From contig JAUSJT010000004.1 in the NCBI GenBank assembly GCA_030647485.1, positions 1 to 43,087 of the forward strand: a stretch of 43,087 nt of DNA, in the 5' to 3' direction. A program made the position numbers and the translations under genes. Within the stretch, counting starts at the first letter, position 1; every line of letters begins with the position of its first letter. The notes under the pieces were generated by a model. It saw nothing but the letters and a program-made list of their open reading frames with translations, was not told the DNA's origin and made no database searches. Of this stretch, positions 6,581 to 39,618 are shown piece after piece. This DNA is from a bacterium. Its GTDB lineage: Bacteria; Patescibacteriota; Minisyncoccia; Minisyncoccales; UBA10102.

Positions 6581-6698
6581 AACTAAATTCCATTTAGTTA
6601 TCCACAGCTAAACGTCCACAGCTAAACGAGATTTAAGCACTAGCAAAACATTTGCACATAAACTTATAATAGAATGGCACTACTAAATCTCATTTAAG
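6581..6698. repeat. Hairpin/DnaA-box-like repeat copy with a 14-nt tandem duplication, plus a solo hairpin
   Basis: AACTAAAT-TCC-ATTTAGTT (6581-6599); TTATCCACA (6598-6606); TCCACAGCTAAACG x2 (6601-6628); CTAAAT-CTC-ATTTA (6683-6696). Confidence 0.75.
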
Positions 6699-6709
6699 AA
6701 TAACAAGAA

Positions 6710-6796
6710 ATGATAAGGAAAAAGTTTGAGCAAGGTAATATTTATCACGTGTATAATAGAGGCGTTGAAAAACGCGACGTTTTTCTTCTGCTTTAG
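6710..6796 (+). pseudogene. Truncated 5' fragment of a RAYT-like transposase
   Basis: MIRKKFEQGNIYHVYNRGVEKRDVFLLL* versus MKRVRFEKGKIYHVYNRGVEKRSIFL of 6967..7686. Confidence 0.8.
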
Positions 6797-6957
6797 AATC
6801 CTGCCTAAGTCAATCCTGCCTAAGCCTCGCTCAATCCTGCCTAAGCCTCGCTTAGTTATCCCCACCTAAGCGAGGCTTAGGTGGTAGCCAGGACCCTTTC
6901 TTTAAGATTATAATTATGAATATAAGAGAATCCTAAGCCTCGCTTAGGCAAGCTTAG
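6797..6957. repeat. REP-like hairpin cluster CCTAAGC-CTC/GAG-GCTTAGG
   Basis: Three AATCCTGCCTAAG units of increasing length; doublet 6840-6881 with TTATCCCCA linker; further copy at 6932-6948. Confidence 0.9.
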
Positions 6958-6966
6958 ACGATTGTT

Positions 6967-7686
6967 ATGAAACGGGTTCGATTTGAAAAAGGGAAAATTT
7001 ATCACGTATATAATCGAGGCGTTGAGAAACGGTCCATTTTTCTCTCCGAGGGCGATCGCTGGAGATTTCTTCAAGGTCTGTATTTATTTAATGATGAAAC
7101 TGGATCTGCCAATCTTTTGTATCGTCTTGAACAAGAAAAAGGCAAGATGCACTTTGGTATTTTGCGCGAGTATATGGCCCGGCACGGCGCTAAACGGAAA
7201 CCATTGGTTCGCATTATGGCAGATTGCTTGAAATCAAATCACTTTCATATGGCAATTGAAGAAACAACGGAAAACGGCATTTCAAGATTTATGCAGAAAT
7301 TGGGCACTGGTTATACAAAGTACTTTAATACTAAGTACGAACGAGTAGGTCCTTTATTCCAGGGCCCATTCAAGGCAGTAGAGGTGAAGAGCGATGAACA
7401 GCTTATGTATCTTCTTGCGTACATAAACGCAATCAATCCAGGACAGGAACTGGAACCGGAACTGAAGTCTGCCGCGCAAAACCCCGAAGAAATATTGAGT
7501 TTTATAGAGGATCATTTTCTGTGGAGCACGCACTTGGAATATCTTGGGAAGCGCGATTCTATTATCGTTGACAAGGGTATTGCAGGTGAGCTTTTTTCTA
7601 GCCCTGTACGATACAGGAAGTTCATAGCAGATATTATACGAGGTAAACAAAGATCGGGATTGCAGGATAATCTCCTGTTAGATTAA
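6967..7686 (+). CDS. HUH/Y1 tyrosine transposase (RAYT/IS200-like)
   Basis: YHVYNRGVEKR, HUH motif NHFH, YFNTKYERVGPLFQGPFK, YINAINP; flanked by hairpins. Confidence 0.85.
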   Translation: MKRVRFEKGKIYHVYNRGVEKRSIFLSEGDRWRFLQGLYLFNDETGSANLLYRLEQEKGKMHFGILREYMARHGAKRKPLVRIMADCLKSNHFHMAIEETTENGISRFMQKLGTGYTKYFNTKYERVGPLFQGPFKAVEVKSDEQLMYLLAYINAINPGQELEPELKSAAQNPEEILSFIEDHFLWSTHLEYLGKRDSIIVDKGIAGELFSSPVRYRKFIADIIRGKQRSGLQDNLLLD

Positions 7687-7688
7687 TT

Positions 7689-7712
7689 TGTTGATAACTT
7701 AACCAGGCTAAG
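7689..7712. repeat. Half copy of the hairpin/DnaA-box-like repeat
   Basis: TGTTGATAA-CTTAAC-CAG-GCTAAG immediately after the transposase stop codon. Confidence 0.6.
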
Positions 7713-7715
7713 GAT

Positions 7716-8501
7716 ATGAGAGAGATGTTGGAAAAAGTGAGGAATGGGGTGCTTGGAACAAACGGAGTACTGGGCAGAGTAGGCAGGGGTATTTTAGACG
7801 TGGTGTTTCCGGTACGATGTGTTGGGTGTGGAGAAGAAGGACACTATATATGTAGGAGATGTGAAGGTTTTACAAGTGAAGCTGCTTTGATTTGCCCTTT
7901 GTGCCAGCAATCTAGCTTGACTGGAGAACGCCACGAGAATTGCAGGTCACTGTATGGGTTAGAGGGTTTGGCAAGCGTGTGGGAATACGAGGGGGTGGTG
8001 AAAAGTCTTCTTCATAATATAAAGTACAATGGCATGACCCATGCGATTGCAGAAACAGTTCAGAGCGCATATATAAGCATGGCAGGCGATACAATGCGAT
8101 TTAAAACATTTCTCTCTTATTTGTTTTCCAAAGACACCTGCATAACATATGTGCCAATGTTTAAGAGAAAAGAAAAGTTCCGCGGTTTTAACCAGGCTAC
8201 TGTATTTGCAAGAGAAATGGGAAAAGTAGTTAAGAGGGAGGCGGTTTCTTTACTCGAAAAAATAGTAGATACAAAACCGCAGGTAGATCTTACAAAAGAA
8301 GAACGGTTGCAAAACCTGAAAGGGGCCTTTCAAGTAAAATTCGAAATCCCTGCCTCGCCGGCAGGCAGGCGAATCCCCAAAAACGTTGTACTTGTTGATG
8401 ACGTCTGGACTACCGGTGCTACTATGAAAGAGTGTTGCAAAGTTTTGAAAAAGTCGGGAATCCAGCAGGTATGGGGTTTTACGGTGGCGAGAACACCTTG
8501 A
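7716..8501 (+). CDS. comF: ComF family protein (zinc ribbon + phosphoribosyltransferase)
   Basis: FPVRCVGC...CRRC...CPLC; RGFNQA; VVLVDDVWTTGATM. Confidence 0.9.
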   Translation: MREMLEKVRNGVLGTNGVLGRVGRGILDVVFPVRCVGCGEEGHYICRRCEGFTSEAALICPLCQQSSLTGERHENCRSLYGLEGLASVWEYEGVVKSLLHNIKYNGMTHAIAETVQSAYISMAGDTMRFKTFLSYLFSKDTCITYVPMFKRKEKFRGFNQATVFAREMGKVVKREAVSLLEKIVDTKPQVDLTKEERLQNLKGAFQVKFEIPASPAGRRIPKNVVLVDDVWTTGATMKECCKVLKKSGIQQVWGFTVARTP

Positions 8502-8510
8502 TAGAGAACT

Positions 8511-8580
8511 AAAACCGAGCACCCAATTGAGTGCTCGGCACTGGCGATCTCGCACAGTACGAGATTCCGGCTTGCCATCC
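8511..8580 (-). ncRNA. Candidate ~70-nt small RNA
   Basis: Lies between a near-consensus promoter and the terminator hairpin CCGAGCAC/GTGCTCGG + TTTT; internal hairpin ATCTCG/CGAGAT. Confidence 0.5.
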
Positions 8581-8586
8581 ATTATT

Positions 8587-8615
8587 ATTCTACCAACCCC
8601 GGGCATAGCTGTCAA
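8587..8615 (-). promoter_or_regulatory. Sigma70-type promoter
   Basis: TTGACA-17 nt-TAGAAT on the minus strand. Confidence 0.65.
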
Positions 8616-8724
8616 ATTATACCCCGGGGCATTTTATACGCTCACCACGGAGGGCTCGCTAAAATGCCCGTTGAAGACAAGCAGTTGTCTTCAACCCCCG
8701 CGGGTCCACTGCCAGGTAAACTAT

Positions 8725-9627
8725 ATGACTACAATTATACAAAGAGAAAATAAAAAGTATCCAAAGCTGTTGGCTCAGATTGGAGACGCGCCAAAGCAGC
8801 TGTATTATAAAGGTACTTGGGATGCTACGATTTTTGAACATTGTCTTGCGGTGGTAGGTACGAGAAAAATGACAACGTATGGCAAGCGCATGACAGAGCA
8901 GCTGGTAGGGGAAATTGCCAGCGCAGGAATCACCATTGTTTCTGGATTCATGTATGGTATTGATGCTGCCGCTCACAAAGCCGCGCTACGGGCTGGCGGT
9001 AGAACCATTGCGGTAATGCCATGTGGTATTGACATGATTCATCCTTCAGACCAAGCAGACCTGTACAAAGAAATTGTAGACATGGGAGGGCTTGTGCTTT
9101 CTGAATACGAAGGGAATTTTCAGCCTTTACTCTGGACATATCCAAAGCGAAACCGCATTGTGGCAGGCCTTTCTCAAGCAACGCTTGTGGTAGAGGCGGG
9201 AGAAAAATCTGGTTCTCTGATTACTGCACATTTTGCCAAGAAATACAGAAGAAAACTTTTTGTGGTGCCAGGCCCACTTACCAGCAGCGTATCAGTCGGA
9301 ATTATGCAGCTTATCAAAGAAGGGGCAGAAGTGGTTGGCGGCGCAAAAGATGTGCTGGATTTTTATCGCTCGAATCTTGGATTTTCTTTGCGCTTTATCC
9401 CGCCAGCTGGCGGGAGCCCTACGCGTCTGCAGAAAACCCAAGATCCTCGCTCTCTTTCTACTCTCGAAGAAAAAGTTCTAGAGGAGTTGCGAGCGGAGCC
9501 AAAAGAAGTTGACGAATTGGCTCGTTTGTTTGGCGCTTCAGCTGCTCACATTGGAAGCGTTCTCTCTTTTCTTGAATTATCTGGTGCGATAACAAATGAA
9601 AATGGAAAGTACGGTATCATTTCCTAA
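8725..9627 (+). CDS. dprA: DNA-processing protein DprA
   Basis: LAVVGTR, IVSGFMYGIDAAAH, RNRIVAGLS, VVEAGEKSGSLITA; C-terminal winged helix. Start reassigned to ATG 8725. Confidence 0.93.
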   Translation: MTTIIQRENKKYPKLLAQIGDAPKQLYYKGTWDATIFEHCLAVVGTRKMTTYGKRMTEQLVGEIASAGITIVSGFMYGIDAAAHKAALRAGGRTIAVMPCGIDMIHPSDQADLYKEIVDMGGLVLSEYEGNFQPLLWTYPKRNRIVAGLSQATLVVEAGEKSGSLITAHFAKKYRRKLFVVPGPLTSSVSVGIMQLIKEGAEVVGGAKDVLDFYRSNLGFSLRFIPPAGGSPTRLQKTQDPRSLSTLEEKVLEELRAEPKEVDELARLFGASAAHIGSVLSFLELSGAITNENGKYGIIS

Positions 9628-11159
9628 TGCTTATTAAAGTTTCATCTGCGGCAAATTCCGGTTTGGAAGCAATAGGAGTAGATGTTGAAGTAAGCGTTTC
9701 AAACAGGGGACTGCCCGGTTTTGACATTGTTGGCTTGGCGGGCAAAGCGGTAGAAGAAAGCAAGGAGCGCGTACGAGCTGCGATTGGCAACTCGCGCATG
9801 GAATTTCCACAGCGAAAAATCACGGTAAATCTTGCGCCGGCAGATATTCTTAAGGAGGGCTCTTTTTACGATTTGCCCATTGCCGTTGGCATTATGGCTT
9901 CTGTTCTTCAATACGAAGTTCCTAAAGACAGTTTATTTTTTGGAGAGCTTTCGCTCGACGGCTCTTTGCGCCACACCAGGGGAGCGGTGCTTATGGCGTT
10001 TTTTGCAAAAGAGCAGGGGCTGAAAAACATTTTTGTACCGTTTCCATCGGCAAATGAAGCGGCAATTATCAAGGGCGTTCATGTATATGCAGTAGAAAAT
10101 CTTTCACAATTGGCTGGGTTTTTATTAGGTAAAGTTGTATTGCAGCCCATCGTGTATGAGGAGCACGTTGAACACATTGAAGATATAGAGTTTGATATGG
10201 CAGAGGTGCTTGGCCAGGAGTATGCCAAACGAGCCATAGAAATTGCAGCTGCCGGAGGGCATAATATTTTAATGATAGGAAGTCCTGGTTCTGGAAAAAC
10301 TATGCTGGCGCGGGCATTGCCAGGCATTCTGCCGCACCTTAACGAAGAGGAGTCGTTAGAGGTGACAAAATTATATTCTGTTGCAGGGTCTATGCCTCCG
10401 CAAGGTTCGCTTATTACTACGCGTCCGTTTCGTTCTCCGCATCACACTATTTCTCAAATTGGGTTAATCGGCGGAGGTAGTAAGCCCCAGCCAGGCGAAG
10501 TGAGCTTGGCGCACAGGGGGGTACTGTTTTTAGATGAATTTAATGAGTTCCCTCGATCAGTGTTAGAATCTTTGCGCCAGCCCGTAGAAGACGGTGTGCT
10601 CACCATATCAAGAGCCAGAGAGCGGGTAACGTATCCATGCCGCTTTATGCTTGTGGCGTCATCTAACCCTTGCCCTTGCGGTTATTTAGGTCATTCAAAA
10701 AAACCGTGCGTGTGTTCTCCACGAGAAATAAGAAAATACAGAAAACGGGCATCCGGCCCTATTCTTGACCGCATTGATCTTCATGTGGATGTTCCAGAAG
10801 TTGATATTGAGAAATTTGCAGAAAATCAGAGAGCTTCTTCATTGTCCGAGCCGTCGTCTGTTATTCGAGAAAGAATAGCAGCGGTTCGCCGCAAGCAGAC
10901 AATGCGCCTTGAGGGGGAGCACATTTTTACCAACGGGGAGATGAAAAACTCTCACATCAAAAAATACGCGAAACTTTCTAGGGAGGCGGAGTTGATTCTG
11001 ACGAGAGCGGGGTTGCAGTATCAGTTGTCTGCCCGGTCGTACATGAAGTTAATAAAGATTTCACGCACCATAGCAGATTTGGCAGACGCAGAGCATATTG
11101 AGAGGGATCATGCGCTAGAAGCGCTACAGTATCGTCCAAAAACATACGAACTTGACTAA
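9627..11159 (+). CDS. comM: YifB/ComM Mg-chelatase-like AAA+ helicase
   Basis: ITVNLAPAD, GSPGSGKT, PFRSPHH, GEVSLAHRGVLFLDE, NPCPCG, LDRID. Confidence 0.95.
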   Translation: MLIKVSSAANSGLEAIGVDVEVSVSNRGLPGFDIVGLAGKAVEESKERVRAAIGNSRMEFPQRKITVNLAPADILKEGSFYDLPIAVGIMASVLQYEVPKDSLFFGELSLDGSLRHTRGAVLMAFFAKEQGLKNIFVPFPSANEAAIIKGVHVYAVENLSQLAGFLLGKVVLQPIVYEEHVEHIEDIEFDMAEVLGQEYAKRAIEIAAAGGHNILMIGSPGSGKTMLARALPGILPHLNEEESLEVTKLYSVAGSMPPQGSLITTRPFRSPHHTISQIGLIGGGSKPQPGEVSLAHRGVLFLDEFNEFPRSVLESLRQPVEDGVLTISRARERVTYPCRFMLVASSNPCPCGYLGHSKKPCVCSPREIRKYRKRASGPILDRIDLHVDVPEVDIEKFAENQRASSLSEPSSVIRERIAAVRRKQTMRLEGEHIFTNGEMKNSHIKKYAKLSREAELILTRAGLQYQLSARSYMKLIKISRTIADLADAEHIERDHALEALQYRPKTYELD

Positions 11160-11201
11160 AACTAAACCGAGTTTAGTTGTGGAGAACTAAACTCGGTTTA
11201 A
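11160..11201. repeat. Hairpin-linker-hairpin repeat
   Basis: AACTAAAC-CGA-GTTTAGT TGTGGAGAA CTAAAC-TCG-GTTTA. Confidence 0.85.
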
Positions 11202-11208
11202 GCAACAT

Positions 11209-11592
11209 ATGGCGGAACATAATACAATAGGGGAAGAAGGGGAAGAGACTGCTAAGAGGTATTTGGAGAGCAAGGGATATAAAATTATTGCAAGAAATTG
11301 GAAGACTAAACGAGCGGAAATTGACATTATTGCTTGTCTTAACCAGGGGTTTTTGGGGCTAGGCAAGAGCCTGCTTGTCTTTGTAGAGGTGCGGACAAAA
11401 CGTCATGAACAGTACGGCACGCCGGAAGAAACCATTGATTATGAAAAACGCATGAGACTGCGGCGAAACGCAACAGCATATATTCATCGAACAAAATACC
11501 GCGGTCCATACCGTATAGACGCCATTTGTTTGATTATTGGGAGCAACGGACTTCAACGTATAGATCACTACGAAAGTATTGTCGAAACTTAG
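11209..11592 (+). CDS. yraN: YraN family (UPF0102) nuclease
   Basis: GEETAKRYLESKGYKIIARNW...EIDII...LVFVEVRT...RIDAI. Confidence 0.92.
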   Translation: MAEHNTIGEEGEETAKRYLESKGYKIIARNWKTKRAEIDIIACLNQGFLGLGKSLLVFVEVRTKRHEQYGTPEETIDYEKRMRLRRNATAYIHRTKYRGPYRIDAICLIIGSNGLQRIDHYESIVET

Positions 11593-11627
11593 TCTCACTA
11601 AGGTGTGAATAACTTAACCTGGTTAAG
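11588..11627. repeat. Hairpin-linker-hairpin repeat overlapping the yraN stop codon
   Basis: CTTAGT-CTC-ACTAAG G TGTGAATAA CTTAAC-CTG-GTTAAG. Confidence 0.85.
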
Positions 11628-11655
11628 GATATAATGGTATACTGATACATTATAT

Positions 11656-13902: not shown

Positions 13903-14062
13903 AATATACTATATGTAGGGAATTCCCCCGACCCCCCACTTTTCACAACCCTCGGTTTTGAATAATTTCCTACACGGGGGCATTCCAAAATTTCTTTGAG
14001 AAATTTTCAGTGCAACGTCGTTACTAATGCATTTATAATTAACTCATTAATTCACGCCCACT

Positions 14063-24182: not shown

Positions 24183-26345
24183 ATGAATACCGTGGCAAAA
24201 AAGAACAGATCAAAACATACCAAGGCTCCCGCAAGGAAATTATTCTCTGTTTCAGAGTACGCGCAACGCACAATGTTTGGCATTGGCATGATTGCGCTGG
24301 CTGGCATATTCCTTTTCTCTTTTTTTGAGAAGGCTGGAGGGGCGGGCCAGCTGTTTTTCTCTCTCTTCTCTTTTCTTATGGGGAAAATAGTATTTCTGGT
24401 TCCTTTATTGTGCATATTGGCCGGTCTTGTGTTCTTGGGCATGAAAGGCATGAAGGCGGGTTCTTTATTTTTTGCCATGCTGTTGCTTCTCGTAGGAGTA
24501 GAGGGCATAGTGGGAAGCGCGGCACGGGCAACCAGCTTGGACGTGGAGGCAACCTCGGGAATGCTGGGCCTTATTCTTTCCTGGCCTGTGTTTGGCGCGT
24601 TCGGATTTTGGGTTTCTGAAATTATTTTTTCTAGCGTAGCCGTGGCTGCAGCTTCTATGCTTTGGCATTTGCTGGATCACAGCCTCGCAGCACCGAGCGC
24701 GTTTTTCAAGAATCCTGTGGTGAAGGTAAAGAAGATTGAAGAAGAGCCGAAGTTTGAGGTGAATGGAGTACAAGACGAGCCTAAGATCATGAATGGAAAT
24801 GTTGATAAGAACGTGGAAGTAAAAGAAGAAAAGTCCTCAAAAGCCCCAAAGCCCTTTGAGCCCCTTCCCGTGGTGGGGGATTATCAGTTTCCTCCTTTAG
24901 ATCTTTTGGAGGCGGAGCACGGCACTCCTAATGCGGGAGATGTGAAAATATACTCTGCGATTATCAAGAAAACGCTTGCGAATTTTGATATTCCCGTAGA
25001 AATTTCAGAGGTGAATATCGGGCCTGCGGTCACGCAATACGCATTCAAGCCCGCGGAAGGCATTAAACTATCCCGTATTGTGGCGCTGTCCAATGATTTG
25101 TCTTTGGCCTTGGCAGCCCATCCTATACGCATTGAAGCGCCCATCCCTGGGCGATCTCTGGTTGGCATTGAAATCCCAAATCGCGTGAGGACCGTTGTGC
25201 GCCTGCGCAATATTATGGAGAATATGCAGTTTAAAGATTCTGTGTCTCCTCTATTGATTGGGTTGGGTAAGGATGTGGCAGGGAATCATATATTCGCAGA
25301 CTTGGCTCGCATGCCCCACTTGCTTATCGCAGGGGCAACGGGTACGGGAAAGACCATAGGATTGAACAATATTATCTTAAGCCTTATTTACCGCAACCCT
25401 CCTTCTCGCCTTCGGTTTATCTTGGTAGACCCAAAGCGCGTGGAGTTTCCCGTGTATAACGAGCTTCCGCATTTGCTGACTCCTGTGATTCTTGATACCC
25501 AGCGCGCTATAAACGCATTAAAGTGGCTCGTAAAGGAAATGGAAAGAAGGTTCCAAGTTCTTTCCCAGGCGCGGTGCCGCGACATTGGGTCATATCATCA
25601 GATGAGCCAAACTACGGCTAAGAGTGCTGAAGAATTTGAGCCCATGCCCTATATCGTGCTTGTTATTGATGAATTAGCAGATCTCATGGCTTCTCGGGGC
25701 AAGGAGTTAGAAGGAATGATTGTACGCTTGGCTCAAATGGCTAGAGCCGTGGGTATTCACCTTGTGCTTGCAACACAGAGGCCTTCTGTGGAGGTTATCA
25801 CCGGCCTTATCAAAGCGAATATTACGAGCAGAGTTGCGTTTCAGGTCGCCTCGCAAGTGGATTCCCGCACCATATTAGATGGCGCTGGAGCAGAAAAGCT
25901 CTTGGGTCAGGGAGATATGCTCTATGTCTCATCGGATTTTACCCGGCCAAGGAGAATCCAAGGAGCGTACGTGTCAGATAAAGACGTAAAGAAGGTTGCG
26001 AGCTGGATTTCCAAGGAATCAAAAGATTTTGTTGCCGACCATATCGGAGAAGACGAATTAAGCCAGAGCGCACAGGAAGGAGTTTTGGCTCCGGGCGTCT
26101 CACAAACGTCTGAATCAGACGACCCTTTGTATGAAGAGGCAAAGCGGGTAGTGATTGAGGCTAAAAAAGCTTCAGCTTCTCTTCTTCAGAGGCGTTTGAA
26201 AGTTGGATATGCAAGAGCGGCACGACTTCTTGATATTTTAGAGGAGCGGGGAGTTGTGGGCCCAGGAGAAGGGGCAAAACCCAGAGAGGTATATGGCATT
26301 TCTCAAGAAGAAGGAGGAGAAGCTTCCAATTGGTTCAGTCCTTAA
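24183..26345 (+). CDS. ftsK: DNA translocase FtsK/SpoIIIE
   Basis: N-terminal TMs; PHLLIAGATGTGKT, IDELADLM, gamma domain SASLLQRRLKVGYARAARL. Start uncertain. Confidence 0.95.
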   Translation: MNTVAKKNRSKHTKAPARKLFSVSEYAQRTMFGIGMIALAGIFLFSFFEKAGGAGQLFFSLFSFLMGKIVFLVPLLCILAGLVFLGMKGMKAGSLFFAMLLLLVGVEGIVGSAARATSLDVEATSGMLGLILSWPVFGAFGFWVSEIIFSSVAVAAASMLWHLLDHSLAAPSAFFKNPVVKVKKIEEEPKFEVNGVQDEPKIMNGNVDKNVEVKEEKSSKAPKPFEPLPVVGDYQFPPLDLLEAEHGTPNAGDVKIYSAIIKKTLANFDIPVEISEVNIGPAVTQYAFKPAEGIKLSRIVALSNDLSLALAAHPIRIEAPIPGRSLVGIEIPNRVRTVVRLRNIMENMQFKDSVSPLLIGLGKDVAGNHIFADLARMPHLLIAGATGTGKTIGLNNIILSLIYRNPPSRLRFILVDPKRVEFPVYNELPHLLTPVILDTQRAINALKWLVKEMERRFQVLSQARCRDIGSYHQMSQTTAKSAEEFEPMPYIVLVIDELADLMASRGKELEGMIVRLAQMARAVGIHLVLATQRPSVEVITGLIKANITSRVAFQVASQVDSRTILDGAGAEKLLGQGDMLYVSSDFTRPRRIQGAYVSDKDVKKVASWISKESKDFVADHIGEDELSQSAQEGVLAPGVSQTSESDDPLYEEAKRVVIEAKKASASLLQRRLKVGYARAARLLDILEERGVVGPGEGAKPREVYGISQEEGGEASNWFSP

Positions 26346-26415: not shown

Positions 26416-27135
26416 ATGAGAAGAAAAATTCCATTCGTCGTAGGGAAAATCTACCATATTTATAATCGAGGTGTTGCTAAGTGCCAAATTTGCAATGGAG
26501 AAGCGGACTGCTGGAGATTTATGCAAGGATTATGTTTATTTAATGATACTAAGAGTACAAGCAGTATACTCTGGCATCTTGAGCGAGATCGAAGTAGACT
26601 CACTATGAATGTGTTGAAGCAATATCTTGTTGATCACGGGAAAAGTAGAGAGCCGCTCGTGCGTATTATGGCGTATTGCCTTATGGGTAATCACTATCAT
26701 CTTATATCTGAAGAAATCCAGGAGGGCGGAATTACAAAATTTATGCACAAGCTCGGCGTTGGATATGCAAATTATTTCAATAACAAACATAAGCGAGTGG
26801 GAAGTTTGTTCCAGGGCAGGTTTAAAAACGTGTTAGTTGAAACCGACCAGCAGCTTCTTTACTTGCTGGTCTATATTAACGTGTTGAATCCTGCTGAGTT
26901 TGTTGCGCCAAATTGGAAAGAACAAGGAATACCAAATATAGGAAAAGTGTTACAATACGCAGAGAGTTACATCTGGGGTACGCATTTGGAGTATTTAGGA
27001 AAGCGGAAGTCACTGATTATTGATAAAGGAATTCTTGATGAGATGCTTCCCACGCCAGAAGCGTATCTTGAATTAGTATGTGGTGTGTTGAGGGGAAAGA
27101 AATACGAAGCAGTAGCTGAACTTATGCTCGAGTAA
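26416..27135 (+). CDS. Second HUH/Y1 tyrosine transposase (RAYT-like)
   Basis: YHIYNRG, NHYH, YFNNKHKRVGSLFQGRFK, YINVLNP; 239 aa from ATG 26416. Confidence 0.85.
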   Translation: MRRKIPFVVGKIYHIYNRGVAKCQICNGEADCWRFMQGLCLFNDTKSTSSILWHLERDRSRLTMNVLKQYLVDHGKSREPLVRIMAYCLMGNHYHLISEEIQEGGITKFMHKLGVGYANYFNNKHKRVGSLFQGRFKNVLVETDQQLLYLLVYINVLNPAEFVAPNWKEQGIPNIGKVLQYAESYIWGTHLEYLGKRKSLIIDKGILDEMLPTPEAYLELVCGVLRGKKYEAVAELMLE

Positions 27136-27189: not shown

Positions 27190-28047
27190 ATGCAAAAAAC
27201 TCTGAACAAAAAAATATTGAACGGGGGGGGCGGATTTACTCTCATTGAACTGCTGGTGGTCATTGCGGTTATCGGTATGCTTGCTTCCATTGTGCTGGTC
27301 TCTCTCAAGGGCACGAGAGAAAAAACATCTATTGCAAAAGGGAAAAATCTTTCTTCTCAGATTGCTCATGTTCTCGGCATTGAGGCGCGCGGAATCTGGC
27401 ACTTTGAAGAAACAAGCGGTCCGTCCCTGGATTCCTCCGGATACGGAGGAAATGGAACATGGAATAACGTTCAAAGTAAGACGGTAGCGGAGTGTGGATT
27501 GGATTTAGGGGGGTGTCTGTATTTCAATGGGAATGCGAACGTAGATGTTGGCAGTTCTTCTGCTCAGGGCCTGCAGAACACCGTGACTGTTTCTGCCTGG
27601 GTGTATTATTCCGGGGACCCCTCTTGGAGAACATATTTTGGGAGAAAGAGTTGGGCTACGCAGCAGTTTTTCAATCTCGCGTACAATATTAATTGTGGCC
27701 CTACCGTCCCTTGGATGGTATACTACGGCAACTTCCAGAGTTTCTGTTGGGGTGATGATCTGCGGAATCAATGGGTGCATTTGGTTGTAACCTATGACAG
27801 TTCATTATCTTCGGCGAACTTCAAGACATATCAGAATGGTGTTGCAAAGCAAACAAGGAACTTTAACGGAATTGCAATCCTTGACGGTAGCGCCTCGTTG
27901 ATTGGAAACAGCGTTGACGTTCGTCCTTGGAATGGATATATAGATGAGGTTGCGATTTACGCAGCCACTTTCACTGCAGGCGAAATTCAGCAACTGTACG
28001 CGGAAGGCGCCCCGCGTCATCAAGTGGCCTCCGTTCCAGGGATGTGA
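27190..28047 (+). CDS. Type IV prepilin-like protein with LamG domain
   Basis: G|[20 protein letters not shown] cleavage/methylation motif; WHFEE...WVHLVVTYD...GYIDEVAIY. Confidence 0.88.
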
Positions 28048-29265: not shown

Positions 29266-29269
29266 GGTG

Positions 29270-32251: not shown

Positions 32252-32255
32252 AAGA

Positions 32256-33248
32256 TTAAAAAGACAGGAGACCGATTTTTTCTCGCACTTCCTCCATGGT
32301 ATTTTGAGCAGTAGACTGTGCTTTCTTTTGCCCTTGCCGCAGGATTTCTTGGATATATAATTCTCTTCTTTTTAATTCCTCGTATTTTTTCCGAAAAGGC
32401 TCAAGTTTCTCAACGAGAAGTTCTCCCAGCGCTTTTTTAAAAGGAGCATATCCTTTCTTTTGGAATTTCTTTTCTACTTCTTTGATTGACTGTTCACTGA
32501 AAAGGGAAAAAATGACCAGGAGGTTTGAAATCCCTGGTTTCTCTGCAGGATTAAAAACGATCTGTTTCCCTGAGTCTGTTACTGCGTTTGCAATCTTTCT
32601 GCGAATGGAATCTGGATCTTCCAGCATTCCTAGTTGGCTATCCGGGGGATCGGATTTAGACATCTTTCTTTTAGGATCTTGCAAGGAAAGGATCTTTGCC
32701 CCCATCTCTAGGGAAGGGACCATGGCCTTGGGTACAGGAAAGGTATCGCCGAATTTCTGGTTAAATCTCTTTGCAAGATTTCTGGAAAGTTCAAGGTGCT
32801 GAACCTGATCCTTTCCAATCGGAACCCCCTCTGTCTTATACAGTAGAATATCCGCAGCCTGGAGAACGGGGTAGTTTAACAGCCCCATATTCGCACTTTC
32901 TTTTCCTTTCTTTTTTGATTTCTCTTTGTATTGGGTCATCCGTTCCAATTCTCCCACAGGGACTATGGTACTTAATATCCAGGCAAGCTCTGTGGGTTCT
33001 TTGATCTGGGATTGGACAAAGATGGTGGACCTTGCAGGATCCAAACCCAAGGCAACGAGTTCTATTGCCTTCTCTATGGTTGAGTTTCTAAGGATTTTAG
33101 GATCTTGGGGTTGGGTTAACGCATGCAGGTCTGCAATGAAAAAGAAGCATTCGTTGTCCTCTTGGAGCTTGACCCAATGCCTGATTGCTCCCAGATAGTT
33201 GCCAATATGGTAGGCTCCTGTAGGTTGTATGCCGCTCAAAATCCTCAT
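32256..33248 (-). CDS. trpS: Tryptophanyl-tRNA synthetase
   Basis: SGIQPTG, HIGNYLG, YPVLQAADIL, KMSKS. Confidence 0.97.
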   Translation of the reverse strand: MRILSGIQPTGAYHIGNYLGAIRHWVKLQEDNECFFFIADLHALTQPQDPKILRNSTIEKAIELVALGLDPARSTIFVQSQIKEPTELAWILSTIVPVGELERMTQYKEKSKKKGKESANMGLLNYPVLQAADILLYKTEGVPIGKDQVQHLELSRNLAKRFNQKFGDTFPVPKAMVPSLEMGAKILSLQDPKRKMSKSDPPDSQLGMLEDPDSIRRKIANAVTDSGKQIVFNPAEKPGISNLLVIFSLFSEQSIKEVEKKFQKKGYAPFKKALGELLVEKLEPFRKKYEELKRRELYIQEILRQGQKKAQSTAQNTMEEVREKIGLLSF

Positions 33249-33255
33249 ACGTGTA

Positions 33256-35001
33256 TTATACTTCAATGATGACGGGCAGCACCATAGGCCGCCGTTCGGT
33301 CTTAAGGAACAAGAAATCCGTTATCTTGTTCCTTACGTTGTCTCTCACATACACCCAGTTCACGGCTCCTCCTGTTCCCACGGATTTGTTTACAATATCA
33401 ATGACGTGCCTGCGAACCTGGTGCAAGAGATCCTTTGATTCTCGGAGATAGACAAAGCCCCGAGAGATGATGTCTGGAGATCCTTTCACTTCTCCTTTCT
33501 GGCGGTCCACCACGACAATAATTACAAACATGCCATCTTTAGCCAGGCTTTGGCGATCTCTCAATACTACTTCTCCAACGTCTCCTACTCCTAGTCCGTC
33601 CACCATGACGTAGTTTGCGGGCACCAACCTCTTCTCAATGACAATTTGATTTTTAGTAAGGCTAACTACGTTGCCGTTCTCTGGAACGATGACATTTTTT
33701 TCTGGCATCCCCGTGTTGCGCGCGAGCAAGGCATGGTTTACCAGCATGGAGAACTGGCCGTGAATAGGAATGAAGAACTTGGGCTTTAAGTACCCTATAA
33801 TCTCTTTCAGCTCTTCCTGATTTGCGTGCCCTGATGCGTGGATATCCATCATCTTGTAATGGAACACGTTTGCTCCCTGGCGGTAGAGGTTGTCTTTCAC
33901 GTATTGCACGGTCCGTTCGTTGCCTGGGATCACAGAAGAAGAGAAGATGGCCGTGTCTCCCTTTCGGATCTTTAGAAGCTTGTGCTCTCCGGTGATAATG
34001 CGCATTAAGACGGCCCGTTCTTCTCCCTGGGCTCCGGTGCACGCAATAGTTATCTTGGGGTCTGGGCTGTTCAGGATTTCTTTCGTGGTCACAATGGTGC
34101 CTTTCTTTGCCTTGATGTATCCTATCTGTCTTGCGATTTCCACATTTGTCTTCATGGAGAATCCTTCTAAGGCAACCCTCCTTCCGTATTTTTCAGAGAG
34201 AGTGATGATTTGCTGCACTCGATTAAGCAGAGATGCAAAGGTTGCGGTAATAATTCTTCCCTCCGCTTTTTTGAAGACCTCGTCCAAGTTCGCCATGATA
34301 TGCTTTTCTGACAGAGAATGGTTTGGCTCTTCCGAGTTCGTGGAGTCGGACATAAGCAAGAGAACGCCCTCCTGTCCCATGTGCTTGAGCCTATCATAGT
34401 CAGTGGAGGGTTCATTCACTGGAGCGTCGTCAAACTTAAAGTCTGATGTATGGACAATGGTGCCCACGGGGGTGGATATGGTAAAGCCGAAGTTGTCTGG
34501 AATATTGTGGTTCTGGCGGAAGGGTTCAATGTCAAAGGGGCCCAAGCGAAAGCGCTTTTTGTCTTGAATGAGAGCAATGTTGAGTTTCCCCTTGTTTGGG
34601 AAATCTTCCTGGCGCCGCAGGATGATTGCTTTTGCTATCTCTCCCGCAAAAAGCGGGGGATTCCCTAGTTGAGGGATAAGATAGGGTATGGCTCCGATGT
34701 GGTCATAATGTCCATGGGTGATGAGAACTCCTACAATATCTTTCTCCCTTCCTTTGAGGGAAGTAACATTGGGTATGATGTAGTCAATACCTGGCATGTC
34801 TTCTTCCGGCATGCGGAACCCCATGTCTATGATGAGGATTTTCCCTTCGTATTCCAACACCATCATGTTTCTGCCGACCTCTCCTAGTCCCCCCAAGGGG
34901 GTAATGTGCACAGCTCCTTCTTGAGTTGGCCTGTTGTGAAGTAATGGTTCAGCTTTCTGAACGCGCATTCCCTCGTTTCTTCTTACTGCTGTTCGCTCCA
35001 T
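33256..35001 (-). CDS. rnj: Ribonuclease J
   Basis: PLGGLGEVGRNM, THGHYDHIG, IHASGH, RRPMVLPVIIEV. Confidence 0.96.
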   Translation of the reverse strand: MERTAVRRNEGMRVQKAEPLLHNRPTQEGAVHITPLGGLGEVGRNMMVLEYEGKILIIDMGFRMPEEDMPGIDYIIPNVTSLKGREKDIVGVLITHGHYDHIGAIPYLIPQLGNPPLFAGEIAKAIILRRQEDFPNKGKLNIALIQDKKRFRLGPFDIEPFRQNHNIPDNFGFTISTPVGTIVHTSDFKFDDAPVNEPSTDYDRLKHMGQEGVLLLMSDSTNSEEPNHSLSEKHIMANLDEVFKKAEGRIITATFASLLNRVQQIITLSEKYGRRVALEGFSMKTNVEIARQIGYIKAKKGTIVTTKEILNSPDPKITIACTGAQGEERAVLMRIITGEHKLLKIRKGDTAIFSSSVIPGNERTVQYVKDNLYRQGANVFHYKMMDIHASGHANQEELKEIIGYLKPKFFIPIHGQFSMLVNHALLARNTGMPEKNVIVPENGNVVSLTKNQIVIEKRLVPANYVMVDGLGVGDVGEVVLRDRQSLAKDGMFVIIVVVDRQKGEVKGSPDIISRGFVYLRESKDLLHQVRRHVIDIVNKSVGTGGAVNWVYVRDNVRNKITDFLFLKTERRPMVLPVIIEV

Positions 35002-35053
35002 ATATAGGTTGAGTAATTAGATAATTATATAGATGTAATGAGAATTACATTAG

Positions 35054-35135
35054 TGCCCTCGGTGGGACTCGAACCCACAAGCCTTGCGGCATAGCGTTCT
35101 GAACGCTACACGTATTCCGATTCCGTCACGAGGGC
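35054..35135 (-). tRNA. tRNA-Leu (anticodon CAG), CCA not encoded
   Basis: GCCCTCG/CGAGGGC acceptor stem; TAGCG-TTCAGAA-CGCTA anticodon arm; long variable arm; GGTTCGAGTCC T arm. Confidence 0.95.
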
Positions 35136-35144
35136 TTAATTCTG

Positions 35145-35552
35145 TTAGGAGATAATCTCAAAAGTATCGTGATCCTTTTCAAATTTTATTCGATAAGAAT
35201 CAAAGAATCCTTCTTCCCCAAGCAGGAGTCCTACGGTGGGGCTTTGTATAAAACACACAGGAATTTTAATAGGTCGATCTATACCGTCTACTTTTATTTC
35301 TACCTCTGGCAAATAATAACTAGCAATGGTACCGCTAATACCTGTAAACTTCCTCTCTTTTGCTTTCGAGAGATCAATTTCTAACAATTCAGCGATTTCC
35401 AAGTTGAAGAGGGAACAGTCTGCACCCGAATCAACGAGTGCATCAAAAGCTCTTTTTGTCTTGGGTCCAAATACCTCTATTCTTATGAGAGGTCTTTTAA
35501 CCCATTTAAGTGTTTTTTCGGGAGGGAAGAAAGAGGTATAGCGATATTTCAT
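35145..35552 (-). CDS. Retropepsin-like aspartyl protease
   Basis: ALVDSGAD motif and LLGEEGFF. Start ATG 35552 overlaps the upstream stop. Confidence 0.8.
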   Translation of the reverse strand: MKYRYTSFFPPEKTLKWVKRPLIRIEVFGPKTKRAFDALVDSGADCSLFNLEIAELLEIDLSKAKERKFTGISGTIASYYLPEVEIKVDGIDRPIKIPVCFIQSPTVGLLLGEEGFFDSYRIKFEKDHDTFEIIS

Positions 35553-35755
35553 ATTGTGCCGAGTGGCATATAGAAAGCATCTCCAGAGAACACCTTTAAA
35601 AAGATACCATCTTTTGGTCCCATTTTTTGTGCTACCTCTTTTAAAGTATTTCCATCTCCAAGTACTTTCTTTTGATCGCGAGACAATGCAACCCACTTAT
35701 TCGCATATGACTTAAGCAGTTTTCTAAAGTCGTAATTTACGTTTTGTGTTTTCAT
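35549..35755 (-). CDS. DUF5678-like small protein
   Basis: YANKWVALSRDQKKVLGDG.TLKEV. Confidence 0.65.
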   Translation of the reverse strand: MKTQNVNYDFRKLLKSYANKWVALSRDQKKVLGDGNTLKEVAQKMGPKDGIFLKVFSGDAFYMPLGTI

Positions 35756-35793
35756 GAGTATATTATATCAGATAAGAAGGAATCTTGCAACCT

Positions 35794-37707
35794 TTATTTC
35801 AACACCCTTTTTGTCTCTATATACCAGCTTTTCATTCCTGCAAAGCGCTGAGACGGATCTCCTACGATATGCTCTTTAATGCCCTTTACTTCCTGCGCCG
35901 CTTCATACGTATACGGCATATCATACAAGAATAAAGCAGGAACGTCTTTGAGGAGCAATGCCTGAAGGCTTTCATACATTGTAGCGCGCGCTTGTTCGTC
36001 AAGTTCTTTCCTTATTGATCCTAAAAGCTTGTCTGCCTCTTTTGATTCATAGGAAGAAAGGTTTAGGCCAGGGTCCTTTTTTTGGGAAGAATGCCAGAAC
36101 GGGAAAGGATCGGGTATTTTCCCCACTATTTCTCCAAAGAGAAGCGTTTGATAATTCCTTGGCTTTATAACATCCCGTTCCAGTTCTACCTGGGGATATG
36201 TTTGAATAATAGTTTCAATGCCTAGCTCGTTCCATTGCGCCTGCAAGAATTTTGCAACATCGGTAAGAGGGGATTGGTCAAGCGTTGTTATAGTAATGGT
36301 TAAAGGTAAATCCTCTTTAAGTTTAACTCCGCAAAGCTCGTTGAGTTTTGCCCTTGTTCCTGCTTTGACCGCTCCTGTTCCCTTGGTTAGCCCTGAAGAG
36401 GTCAGGATTTCCGCCCTGTACTTTTCCTGGAATTTTATCACTGCTTTCTCGGTAAGAGCTCCAAATATTCCTGTGATGCTTTCTTCGGGGTACACCCCAG
36501 GATCCCTTGCCAGGCATTCTTGGAGCTTGCGTACTTCAGCCCCCTGGCTGCCCTTCACGAGATCAACGCGGAATTCTCCTATGGGATTCTGTTGCTGTAC
36601 GAGTTTGCCGTCCTTTTGCGCGTATCCTTCTCTGGCGAACAGAGAAAGAGCCTTTTCAATGTCTTTTCTTTGTGGTTGTTCAGGGGTCTTAAATCCAAAG
36701 AGGTCTGCTCGTACCGGAGAGTCTACCACGGTTCCGTCCCCTTTTAACACTTGCTCATTAAGAAGGTTTTTATCAATGGCGTAGTTTAACGCTTCTCGTA
36801 TATTCTTTTCTTTCACAACTGCCTGCTCTTTGGAAGCATCAAGATTAAAGAAAAGGGCAAAATACCTGGCAAGCGGGAATTGGTAGGTTATAGTGCGCTT
36901 GGAGAATTGTGTAGTGATAGAGCTTTCTTCCTTGTCAGAGAATGCGAAGAGGATTGAACCAATGAAGGGATCTTTTCCGTGGTATGCGCGGTATCGCTCC
37001 AGCCGTATCGTATTTACCCGTCCTGATTTGTCCTGTGAGATTTTCTCTAGCTTGTATGGTCCTGTCCCGATGGGCTGGAGGTTGTAGAAAGAAAGGGCAA
37101 AGTTTTCAGGATTAATGTTTTCCCAAATATGCGCGGGGATGATCTTTAATGTCAGCCGATCGGGAAACGCGGCGTAGGGCTGCGAAAGCGAGAACCGTAC
37201 TGTTTGAGCATTTACCTTCTCCACCTCAACTCCTACCCAGTTTGCTCGTATAGGGCTCTTATATTTTGGATCTTGTATGGTCTTTATTGTGAATACCACG
37301 TCATCTGCGCTGAACGGGTATCCGTCATGCCATTTCACATTTTCTTTCAGGTTGAATGCGAATACCTTCCCGCCTTCCTGAATCTCATAATCCTGCGCAA
37401 GGTCAGGTACTAGCACTCCTTCCTCATTATACTCCAACAGCCCCGAGAATAGGAACTGCACCAAATCTCGGTCCGCATCGTTCACGTCAGAGTACACAGG
37501 ATTCAAGAATCTGGGAGATCCTACGATATGTTCTTGGAGGAGTCCTCCATAAGCCGCAACTTCTTTGGTGAGCCTCAAATAGGATCCTTGTATAAGATTT
37601 CCAGAGCTTATGAGAAACACTGCGATGGCGAACAACGCCACCAGTTTCTCTCTACGAGAAAGAACCTCGGGAAGTTTTTTCCATTGAGAAAATGAAGGAA
37701 GTCGCAT
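35794..37707 (-). CDS. Family-5 ABC substrate-binding protein with inserted peptidoglycan-binding domain
   Basis: PDLAQDY, KWHDGYPFSADDVVFT, PIGTGPY; internal GSQGAEVRKLQECL...TGIFGALTEKAVIKFQ. Confidence 0.88.
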   Translation of the reverse strand: MRLPSFSQWKKLPEVLSRREKLVALFAIAVFLISSGNLIQGSYLRLTKEVAAYGGLLQEHIVGSPRFLNPVYSDVNDADRDLVQFLFSGLLEYNEEGVLVPDLAQDYEIQEGGKVFAFNLKENVKWHDGYPFSADDVVFTIKTIQDPKYKSPIRANWVGVEVEKVNAQTVRFSLSQPYAAFPDRLTLKIIPAHIWENINPENFALSFYNLQPIGTGPYKLEKISQDKSGRVNTIRLERYRAYHGKDPFIGSILFAFSDKEESSITTQFSKRTITYQFPLARYFALFFNLDASKEQAVVKEKNIREALNYAIDKNLLNEQVLKGDGTVVDSPVRADLFGFKTPEQPQRKDIEKALSLFAREGYAQKDGKLVQQQNPIGEFRVDLVKGSQGAEVRKLQECLARDPGVYPEESITGIFGALTEKAVIKFQEKYRAEILTSSGLTKGTGAVKAGTRAKLNELCGVKLKEDLPLTITITTLDQSPLTDVAKFLQAQWNELGIETIIQTYPQVELERDVIKPRNYQTLLFGEIVGKIPDPFPFWHSSQKKDPGLNLSSYESKEADKLLGSIRKELDEQARATMYESLQALLLKDVPALFLYDMPYTYEAAQEVKGIKEHIVGDPSQRFAGMKSWYIETKRVLK

Positions 37708-37714
37708 GAATGGT

Positions 37715-37933
37715 TCAGAACAAAAGGTTAGAGAGGGAAAGCGCGATGAAGAGAATGCCAAGGATAACGGTAGCTGCGTACAGCTTTTGCTGGATTCCTC
37801 TTCTTGTAGCAAAGAACGTCCCTTCGCCTCCCCCGAAAGAAGATCCTAAGGCCGTGCCTCTTTGTTGTAAGAGAATTGATGCTACGAGAAGGACTGCAAC
37901 AATAATTTGAGCGTATAGTGAATAAGAGTTCAT
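37715..37933 (-). CDS. secG: Preprotein translocase SecG
   Basis: ILLQQRGTALGSSFGG...TRRG; 2 TM segments. Confidence 0.92.
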   Translation of the reverse strand: MNSYSLYAQIIVAVLLVASILLQQRGTALGSSFGGGEGTFFATRRGIQQKLYAATVILGILFIALSLSNLLF

Positions 37934-38271
37934 AATTTTCCCCGCCCCAGAAGAGACAGGATAATGCTAGCTCCCCCTATTGCGAGGACTGTCCATGCCA
38001 AAGGAACGAGGCCTACGATATGCAGTTCGGGGAATACGATGTCTAATCCCCAGACTACTCCAAGCAATATAGCTCCCAGTACGATGATTTTTAGAAGAAA
38101 AGACAAAAGGCCAAGCACAGGTTTGACAACGATAAGGATGATTCCGAGAGCGCCTGCCATCATGAAAAAGGTCTGCCAGGATCCCTCAAAAGACACTCCT
38201 GGGATGAATTTCGTTGCTGCCCAGAGTCCTCCTATCCCTGCAACGAGGGAGAGAATTATAGTTTGAACCAT
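37930..38271 (-). CDS. 4-TM membrane protein (phage-holin superfamily IV/YvlD-like)
   Basis: IPGVSF...VKPVLGLLS; four hydrophobic segments. Confidence 0.6.
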   Translation of the reverse strand: MVQTIILSLVAGIGGLWAATKFIPGVSFEGSWQTFFMMAGALGIILIVVKPVLGLLSFLLKIIVLGAILLGVVWGLDIVFPELHIVGLVPLAWTVLAIGGASIILSLLGRGKL

Positions 38272-38283
38272 TGAGCTATGATA

Positions 38284-39618
38284 TCACGAGGATTTAAGTG
38301 CGTCAACCTTTCTAAGTTTCCTGTGATAGGTGACGGCAAAGCGATGGGCTTCGTCGCGCACGTGCAAAAGGAGGTTAGAAACCTCCTGGGGAAGGTTTCG
38401 GAGCAAGACCGGGTCTGCTTTCCCTGGAGAAAAGAGCTCATTATTCCGTTTTGCCAAAGCAACAACCTTAATTTTTTGCAACTTAATCTCATTAAGGTGT
38501 GGATAACTTAATTCCATTAAGTTTGAAATGGCTTTGAGGGCAGAAGAAAGCTGGCCTTTTCCTCCGTCAATGAGCATAAGATCGGGGTAGGGCCATTCCG
38601 TGTGTTTGAGGCGTCGGGAGATGAGCTCTTGCATCATGGCAAAATCATTCGGTTTGCCAGTGATATGGATCTTGAATTTTCGGTACCATTCTTTTGCGGG
38701 TTTTCCTTTTAGAAAGGTTACCATAGATCCCGTAGACTGTTTGCCCTGGATGTTGGATATGTCATACGCTTCTATTCTCGTATACCCTGACCAGGGTTTT
38801 GGGAGAGGAACATCCTGTGAGGGTTGCCAGCGCACTGCGTGAGATAGCACATTCTCTAAGGAGAAAATCTGGTCTCGCAATACTGCTGCTTTTTCAAAGT
38901 CTTGTTCTTTGCTTGCTTGCGCCATTGATTTCTTAAGGTTTTTGAGAACAGAGGTTCTACCTCCCCTAAGAACTGCAGCAAGGTTCTTAATATTCTGTTT
39001 GTATTCTTTTGGGTTAGGATTGGGCCCTGGGCACAGATCAATATGGCAATAAGGACAAGGGAGTATGGGATGTTTCTTTGCGGTGTAGTAAGGGAATGCC
39101 CGTCTCAAAAGGCGCAAGACCTGTTTGATTGCCTTTCCCTCAACGAAAGGCCCGATGTAGTTAAAATTCAAGTTAGTGTCCAAGCGGCTAGTGCCTAAGC
39201 TAGTGCCTAAGCGAGGCTTAGGCATTCCTAAGCCTCGCTTAGGCAGAAATCGCTTAGGCAGAAAGGGTTGATGGGTTAGAAATACTCGAGGGAATTTCTC
39301 TTTTGTGATGGCGACATAGAAATACTTCTTGTCGTCCTTCCACATAACGTTGTACTTTGGCTGGTGTGATTTTATAAGTTGGGATTCAAGTAATAGAGCG
39401 TCAATTTCAGATTGAGTTTCAAAGTATCCTACTCTGGTTACTTGGGATATGAAAAGATTGTCTCGGTATGAGGCTTTGGCAAAGTGGTTTTTTACGCGGT
39501 CTCGCAGGTTTGCAGCCTTTCCGATATACAAGATTTCTTTTCCTCCCAAGAAAGTATATACTCCCGCAGTTTTTGGGATTGGGTTGATGTTTTTTTTGGC
39601 GATATACCTGAATTTCAT
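38284..39618 (-). CDS. uvrC: Excinuclease ABC subunit C (short form)
   Basis: GVYTF...YIGKAANLRDRV, UVR domain, RIEAYDISN, IDGGKGQL, RDEAHRFA. Confidence 0.93.
   Translation of the reverse strand: MKFRYIAKKNINPIPKTAGVYTFLGGKEILYIGKAANLRDRVKNHFAKASYRDNLFISQVTRVGYFETQSEIDALLLESQLIKSHQPKYNVMWKDDKKYFYVAITKEKFPRVFLTHQPFLPKRFLPKRGLGMPKPRLGTSLGTSRLDTNLNFNYIGPFVEGKAIKQVLRLLRRAFPYYTAKKHPILPCPYCHIDLCPGPNPNPKEYKQNIKNLAAVLRGGRTSVLKNLKKSMAQASKEQDFEKAAVLRDQIFSLENVLSHAVRWQPSQDVPLPKPWSGYTRIEAYDISNIQGKQSTGSMVTFLKGKPAKEWYRKFKIHITGKPNDFAMMQELISRRLKHTEWPYPDLMLIDGGKGQLSSALKAISNLMELSYPHLNEIKLQKIKVVALAKRNNELFSPGKADPVLLRNLPQEVSNLLLHVRDEAHRFAVTYHRKLRKVDALKSS
38482..38521. repeat. Hairpin-DnaA box-hairpin repeat inside uvrC
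   Basis: CTTAAT-CTC-ATTAAG G TGTGGATAA CTTAAT-TCC-ATTAAG. Confidence 0.85.
39187..39264. repeat. CCTAAGC-GAG/CTC-GCTTAGG doublet with duplicated flanks inside uvrC
   Basis: Same 17-mer as at 6840-6948; GCTAGTGCCTAA x2 and TCGCTTAGGCAGAAA x2. Confidence 0.9.

Follow-up and report, generated by a model that had tools for sequence, protein, structure and literature searches.

What connects a set of very small hairpins, a linker that reads like a DnaA box and a neighbouring transposase gene is the question raised by a 43,087-nucleotide stretch of patescibacterial DNA (contig JAUSJT010000004.1, positions 1 to 43,087; hereafter the window, which corresponds to G000:C2:1-43087, G000 being the genome under study). 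An earlier note on this stretch had described six loci at which two hairpins flank a DnaA-box-like linker, and had proposed a REPIN-like element (a REPIN being a doublet of repetitive extragenic palindromes, REPs, that forms a hairpin) mobilised by the REP-associated tyrosine transposase (RAYT) encoded at 6967-7686. Comparative evidence from G000 and its relatives supports a REP/REPIN-like miniature palindromic family that is probably owned by the resident RAYT, in other words a 'REPtron' of Patescibacteria with an unusual tag, a reading to which we give a probability of about 0.7. G000 comprises 629,943 bases on four contigs, with 45-47% G+C and an estimated completeness of 98.7%; its gene calls are rough, are based on open reading frames (ORFs), and assign ~91% of the genome to coding sequence.

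Stem pairing is conserved across a dispersed repeat family

All six loci are present in the window sequence. The unit measures ~46 nt and consists of a hairpin, the linker TTATCCACAC and a second hairpin, each hairpin being built from a 6-bp stem and a 3-nt loop. Searching the window for the single-hairpin pattern CTWARY-N3-RYTWAG produced 13 matches, against a mean of 0.21 and a maximum of 2 in 100 dinucleotide-preserving shuffles, and the doublet with a 10-nt linker (at most one mismatch) was found 4 times against 0.00 in the shuffles, an enrichment in line with a genuine repeat family. Genome-wide, the single-hairpin pattern occurs 74 times in 48 clusters; 60 of these 74 matches have perfectly complementary stems, where the pattern alone predicts ~1 in 8.

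Sixteen full copies in G000, selected by the pattern or with at most one stem mismatch, align without gaps as (AAA)-hairpin 1-TTATCCACAC-hairpin 2-(GTT/GGA/GGC). The invariant portion, AG-TTATCC(A/C)CAC-CT, combines the linker with the C-G and T-A pairs that close each hairpin. Variation is found in the inner four stem positions, with 13 different 5' stems among the 16 copies. The stems differ, as the earlier note had observed, yet stay paired: 97.4% of cells are paired, 34 cells are altered on both sides relative to the commonest pair, none of 500 shuffles reached this level, and shifting the 3' partner by 1-3 columns lowers pairing to 8-55%. This covariation count is partly circular, because the copies were chosen by the pattern or by the limit of one stem mismatch. 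A second set gave a similar picture: 40 distinct copies out of 39 loci fetched from relatives, in an alignment fitted to a covariance model trained on the 16 G000 copies and so leaning towards structure, showed 97.7% paired cells and 111 cells altered on both sides, again equalled by 0 of 500 shuffles. These copies carry 17 different 5' stems, including added types such as CTTGCC/GGCAAG and CTTGGC/GCCAAG. Across the dispersed family, the evidence thus supports conservation of the structure and not of the stem sequence. Stem mismatches of the G-T and A-C kinds gave no consistent strand or RNA signal (7 to 1 in G000, 11 to 9 in the relatives).

The linker is box-like at all six loci, as had been claimed, but the exact 9-mer TTATCCACA is found at only two of them. 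Among the 16 full G000 copies it occurs in eight, with TTATCCCCA in three and five other one- or two-mismatch variants once each; among the 40 copies of the relatives the exact 9-mer occurs in 26, TTATCCCCA in five and TTATTCACA in four. The covariance model regained the 16 G000 copies at 52-67 bits and added one full copy (G000:C2:283863-283908, 37 bits) and eight half copies that end directly past the box, giving ~17 full and 8 half copies spread over all four contigs.

In respect of REPIN-like folding, the copies fall into two groups. Symmetric copies, in which hairpin 2 is the reverse complement of hairpin 1, account for 7 of 16 in G000 and 23 of 40 in the relatives, and fold over their whole length into one DNA hairpin (-15 to -18.5 kcal/mol) whose loop contains the box. 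Asymmetric copies form two small hairpins only, of -5 to -8 kcal/mol as DNA. G000 also contains lone AAA-hairpin-TTT units and a box-less class in which a short linker joins two CCTAAGC-N3-GCTTAGG hairpins (six loci, all within ORFs).

The RAYT-type enzyme and its association with the element

Judged by its motifs and modelled fold, the product of 6967-7686 is a RAYT-type Y1 enzyme of the HUH (histidine-hydrophobic-histidine) class, in agreement with what the earlier note had read from the sequence. The 239-residue protein matches Pfam Y1_Tnp at 25.9 bits (cut-off 23) and has no NCBIfam match at E up to 0.1. In an alignment with 19 homologues, Y12-H13, R17, N91-H92-x-H94 and Y152-I153-x3-N157-P158 are invariant. 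The AlphaFold model (mean pLDDT 85.7, pTM 0.85) has as its closest fold in the PDB the E. coli TnpA-REP bound to a REP hairpin (4ER8; E 8e-6, target TM 0.64), with the ISDra2 and IS608 transposases ranking below. The closest matches in public records are labelled as uncultured Saccharibacteria or Patescibacteria metagenome bins.

Close orthologues of the RAYT, defined by at least 65% identity, occur in 11 of 35 other genomes of the family. At the 13 loci fetched (G000 included, two from G018), box-bearing elements adjoin the gene in 11, and the flanking stems vary by genus (CTAAAT in G167, CTTGCC in G018, CTTGGC in G180, CTAAGC in G002), so that the hairpin-box-hairpin unit recurs next to orthologues from other genera while its stems change. 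At 17 loci of more distant paralogues, there was no covariance-model match above 13.8 bits. A search of the same 35 family genomes with the covariance model (E up to 0.01) matched the element in 17, with 1-38 matches each: it is present in 10 of the 11 orthologue-bearing genomes and in 7 of the 24 orthologue-free ones, in keeping with a link between element and enzyme. No match was obtained in 150 other genomes evenly drawn from the order (147 outside the family, 3 inside) at E up to 0.001 with stricter filters.

In at least nine genomes the RAYT precedes one and the same comF-like gene within a RAYT-comF-dprA-comM-yraN block, and this conserved position points to vertical inheritance. It is a low-copy gene: its closest paralogue in G000 is 48% identical, and G018 has two copies. 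G000 carries four other RAYT paralogues in all (33-48% identity), none of which has hairpin-box elements beside it, and two of which are flanked by their own, different palindromes. In G017, comF has another gene upstream and no orthologue is found there; this genome has a single element. The orthologue of G168 (G168:C1:356345-357058), in a genome with 24 element matches, has one in-frame TAG and may be a recent pseudogene.

Copies are present or absent at orthologous sites

The presence/absence variation expected of a mobile repeat was seen at two orthologous sites. At the comM-yraN spacer, G000, G168 and G003 carry a full or box-bearing element, G002 and G013 have a lone hairpin, and G169, G167, G005, G180 and G018 have nothing; G168, G002, G169 and G167 belong to one genus, so the states of this spacer differ within a genus. 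In a loop of uvrC, G000 has a 45-nt in-frame insert, G008 half a copy and G002 one hairpin by itself, and no insert is present in G017 and others, the UvrC of G017 being the most similar over the insert region (76% identity). The box-plus-hairpin half at the 3' end of yraN is common to G000, G169, G002, G005 and G013, supplies the stop codon through its box in G005 and G013, and has a stem that differs among genomes through compensatory changes. Some copies are therefore old, with the hairpin maintained.

Box-bearing copies in G000 lie mostly at gene boundaries, and several touch or supply a stop codon; called ORFs contain 9 of 25 box-bearing loci and every one of the 6 box-less doublets. Only one of the six frames of the unit consensus is free of stops, and this frame is the one used by all box copies that lie inside genes and share the gene's strand. 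Gene ends and tolerant loops of proteins are thus where copies land. The two loops of UvrC that carry copies in G000 hold other in-frame low-complexity repeats in other genera (L003, L005, L011, L012 and L018), for example AATTTCC/GAAATCC units, and as far as their sequences tell, these loops are general landing or expansion sites. Two further placements were noted: six family hairpins lie within 300 bases at G000:C4:85187-85477, inside a 1547-residue ORF, where they are translated as repeated KLNxIK-like peptide motifs, and the elements at G000:C1:30423-30463 and G000:C2:179539-179584 are directly 3' of putative tRNA genes, recognised by T-arm-like sequence.

Comparison with REPtrons and other palindromic repeats

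The element shares the REPtron features that were tested, except for the GTAG/CGTC tag and the extragenic habit. As far as the available text of the REPtron literature goes (PMC3116915, PMC3479197 and PMC6006769, together with structure 4ER8), the likeness to the REPtrons of E. coli and Pseudomonas extends to a Y1 HUH enzyme in which the HUH and Y-x-x-x-N-P motifs are present, a syntenic gene that is inherited vertically and has its own short palindromic repeats at its flanks, repeats dispersed through the genome, a separate repeat type for each RAYT paralogue and inverted doublets folding as one long hairpin in about half of the copies. Measured against the same accounts, the tag here is the 9-10-nt TTATCC(A/C)CAC, identical to a DnaA box, instead of GTAG/CGTC, which agrees with the earlier note's remark that the architecture is not the classical one; it is enclosed by a pair of very small AT-rich hairpins (6 bp, 3-nt loop) rather than lying outside them; the two hairpins are often unrelated to each other; and copies number tens rather than hundreds, several of them in frame within genes.

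In a REPtron of this kind, the hairpins would need only to stay paired, and the fixed tag TTATCC(A/C)CAC, in single-stranded form, would replace the GTAG/CGTC tag. Where the two hairpins are mutually reverse-complementary, the unit could fold instead as one long hairpin with the tag in its loop. The Y1 HUH enzyme from 6967-7686 would bind the hairpin or hairpins in single-stranded DNA and cut at or beside the tag, thereby copying, moving and recombining units.

Two other systems offer partial parallels. The IS200/IS605 transposases (IS608, 2VJV; ISDra2, 2XM3) have the same catalytic fold, are the second-best structural matches and recognise single-stranded hairpins. They differ from the present case in having their own multi-copy genes within an element whose left and right ends are unlike and whose target is a short tetra- or pentanucleotide, whereas the gene here is syntenic across genera and its nearest paralogue in the genome is ~48% identical. 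A different parallel is found among inserts in genes. Rickettsia palindromic elements (RPEs), ~100-150 bp long, lie in frame in conserved protein-coding genes, where they are tolerated in surface loops; we know of no dedicated transposase for them. The present element is likewise a palindromic in-frame insert in genes, but is 45 nt long, tied to a RAYT and without sequence relation to RPEs. What is specific to the window is the hairpin-tag-hairpin layout with its very short covarying stems and shuffled hairpin pairs, together with the in-frame copies and the presence/absence series.

Several observations weigh against the assignment to a RAYT-owned family. At the sequence level, profile similarity of the enzyme to solved structures is marginal (E 0.026-0.056, with 4ER8 at E 0.056), and a single-sequence search against solved structures gave no match. 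The copy number in G000, at ~17 full and 8 half, is low, and the strand of the box shows no replication-strand bias there (13 leading, 12 lagging). G009 has an orthologue (73% identity) flanked by unrelated direct repeats and no element, and the RAYT of G004 is flanked by palindromes with another linker, TTGCGCAA. Finally, G177 (38 matches, at least six of them at the same top score), G176 (10) and G175 (6) have no RAYT-family match at all. As comF and yraN were likewise not found in these three assemblies or in G008, which holds 7 element matches, and as the assemblies are 80-91% complete, the RAYT locus may be unassembled; alternatively, the RAYT may have been lost in G177, G176 and G175 while the repeats survive.

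The linker as a possible DnaA box

The linker 9-mer is the canonical DnaA box. A consensus of TT[AT]TNCACA is given for such boxes in the available text of PMC6006769. G000 contains 27 exact TTATCCACA sites, where a rough estimate from base composition gives ~6; 12 of the 27 lie inside elements, and of the 15 outside, 10 are intergenic in a genome that is ~91% coding. Outside elements, the commonest one-mismatch variants between genes are TTATCCCCA and TTTTCCACA, with five occurrences each, and both are also found among the linkers of elements. The dnaA gene at G000:C3:25896-27254 has the 9-mer and variants on both sides (25772-25904 and 27401-27420), and GC skew turns from negative to positive at this gene, therefore a likely origin. 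The window itself was considered as an origin and rejected, dnaA and the skew turn being on another contig. Since the 9-mer flanks dnaA and is enriched between genes, it looks like a native DnaA box of this bacterium and is probably a genuine binding site for a protein, with DnaA as the natural candidate. In its double-stranded state, an element with this 9-mer would then be bound.

From these features, we consider it a tentative possibility, compatible with RAYT ownership of the family, that the linker is a working DnaA box: host DnaA would bind the duplex and open the AT-rich arms for the RAYT, or the repeats would titrate DnaA. The canonical 9-mer, its positions around dnaA, its enrichment between genes and the share of exact boxes held by the elements are in keeping with this, but a tag fixed purely by RAYT recognition would look identical, and the intergenic boxes outside elements could be decayed elements. 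The boxes are also single, unlike the clusters of oriC or datA: each element has one box and the elements are dispersed, so that in G000 no clustering of DnaA boxes in elements was found, true clusters being those around dnaA and at G000:C2:217177-217325. The latter, outside the window, consists of four DnaA-type boxes (two TTATCCACA and two TTATCCCCA) within 150 bases, where GC skew and gene orientation turn from positive to negative, a terminus-like pattern and not that of an origin. Furthermore, symmetric copies put the box in a single-stranded loop, where it would not be read as duplex by DnaA domain IV. Around distant RAYTs, ~16 near-box matches were counted in 26 loci labelled Patescibacteria and 8 in 17 others, the labels being assigned from record titles; with no clear excess, the idea that the box generally accompanies distant RAYTs was rejected.

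A precedent for a link between RAYTs and DnaA comes from Quentin et al. 2018 (PMC6006769), in the available text of which some subclass 2.1.2 RAYTs carry a Bac_DnaA_C-like domain, while the repeats flanking subclass 2.1 genes are said not to resemble DnaA boxes. Insofar as this text describes them, these enzymes share with the present case the association of a RAYT-type enzyme with a DnaA-type DNA-reading module. They differ in that the domain is part of the enzyme and the box is missing, whereas here the box is in the DNA and the RAYT has no DnaA_C-like domain: neither the whole protein nor residues 152-239 gave a Pfam match to a DnaA-like domain at E up to 10, and hhalign against the DnaA of G000 returned a probability of 0.8%, that is, no match. 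The stronger proposal, that the REP tag is a genuine DnaA box and that the RAYT has a working partner in host DnaA, acting in trans, seems rather unlikely on these data.

Other explanations for the repeats

It is improbable that the units are spread by another mobiliser, such as another nuclease, hairpin-driven slippage or gene conversion, with the RAYT being only a frequent neighbour. The elements in G177, G175 and G176, which have no RAYT-family match, would fit, as would the perfect tandem duplications at element edges in G000 and beside the RAYTs of G018 and G180, which resemble slippage events. The absence of the RAYT from the three assemblies says little, because comF and yraN are not found there either; slippage leaves 45-nt units at unrelated sites unexplained, and elements whose stems vary by genus adjoin the RAYT orthologue in several genera.

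Most doubtful is a role as regulatory or RNA punctuation, that is, as operators of a dimeric regulator, promoter modules, terminators or processing sites: many copies do lie exactly at gene boundaries, several of them supplying or touching a stop codon, several non-element boxes are 0-25 nt upstream of TTGACA-like hexamers, and the compensatory changes in the yraN 3'-end hairpin of five genomes suggest a retained function, but orientation with respect to neighbouring genes is inconsistent, the small hairpins are weak, covarying stems speak against half-site reading by a protein dimer, and the operator alternative fits poorly because uvrC and other genes contain copies that are read through in frame and close relatives have empty orthologous sites. 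At 11604-11640, the box, a 15-nt hairpin and GATATAAT are spaced like a predicted -35 element, spacer and -10 element before the next gene; as a general promoter reading this was ruled out by 7689-7715 and 11180-11211, where the conserved start codon follows too closely to leave space for a -10 element plus leader.

Copies and neighbouring features in the window

The features of the window are collected in Table 1. Beyond the six loci already described, they include the half copy at 4062-4096, the lone hairpin at 6933-6947, the box-less doublet at 39204-39245 and a second RAYT paralogue at 26422-27120, beside which no hairpin-box repeats were found. The second hairpin of the element at 6581-6636, which had been called degenerate, is not simply so, being interrupted by a perfect tandem duplication; the locus itself stands. 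The RAYT fragment at 6710-6787 is preceded by this element as its own; here the 5' portion of the locus has been partially duplicated. Orthologous copies of the half element at 7672-7715 are found in G169, G002, G013 and G005.

Table 1 Repeat copies and RAYT-related features of the window
Feature	Position	Strand	Remarks
Half element (hairpin + TTCTCCACA)	4062..4096	+	In frame within large ORF 1-4731
Element, exact TTATCCACA	6580..6639	+	Second hairpin split by perfect 14-nt tandem duplication 6601-6628
RAYT fragment, first 26 residues	6710..6787	+	73% identical to 6967-7044; local partial duplication
Full symmetric element, linker TTATCCCCAC	6838..6883	+	84 nt 5' of RAYT; long hairpin, -18.5 kcal/mol as DNA
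Lone hairpin CTAAGC-CTC-GCTTAG	6933..6947	.	Directly 5' of RAYT start
RAYT-type Y1 HUH transposase gene, 239 aa (assigned from motifs and model)	6967..7686	+	HUH at H92/H94; Y152-x4-N157-P158
Half element (TTGTTGATAA + hairpin, + strand reading)	7672..7715	-	Between RAYT stop and comF-like start
Full symmetric element	11159..11204	-	comM-yraN spacer
Full asymmetric element	11585..11630	-	yraN 3' end; yraN stop codon 11590-11592 within hairpin stem
Second RAYT paralogue	26422..27120		~48% identical to 6967-7686 product; followed by G+C-rich hairpin
Full asymmetric element, exact TTATCCACA	38479..38524	-	Inside uvrC, in-frame translation NLMELSYPHLNEIKL
Box-less doublet, two CCTAAGC-N3-GCTTAGG hairpins	39204..39245	.	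In frame in uvrC; 12-nt + 15-nt tandem duplications at edges

Perfect short tandem duplications (12-21 nt, ~2 copies) overlap element edges at 6601-6628, 6810-6852, 39187-39212 and 39235-39264, and likewise adjoin the RAYT genes of G018 and G180. The one at 6810-6852, a 21-nt sequence present twice, overlaps the left edge of the element at 6838-6883. Such edge duplications suggest slippage, or repeated cutting and rejoining at the hairpins.

Implications for RAYTs, REPs and their hosts

To our knowledge, REP/RAYT systems have been described almost exclusively in Proteobacteria, where the tags are GTAG or CGTC, and no published description of DnaA-box REPs or of REP/RAYT systems in Patescibacteria was found in a literature search that left most subscription journals uncovered. 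A RAYT-owned family in G000 would extend REP/RAYT to Patescibacteria with a different architecture, and would mean that a selfish or domesticated repeat writes 15-residue inserts into essential genes of a minimal genome. The strict split between stems of which only the structure matters and a fixed tag would also make the element a clean substrate for defining what a RAYT reads.

Should the less likely partnership with host DnaA hold as well, box-bound DnaA would open the flanking AT-rich palindromes and let the hairpins extrude for the HUH enzyme, tying the processing of repeats to the replication cycle. The repeats, with 12 of the 27 exact boxes, would then nearly double the high-affinity DnaA sites of a 0.63-Mb genome and buffer initiation, and RAYTs of other phyla that carry a fused DnaA_C-like domain would represent the same partnership within a single protein. 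The box-bearing element itself offers a concrete connection, open to test, between the replication initiator and a transposase system of the HUH class, one that bears on the role of RAYTs and REPs in their hosts.

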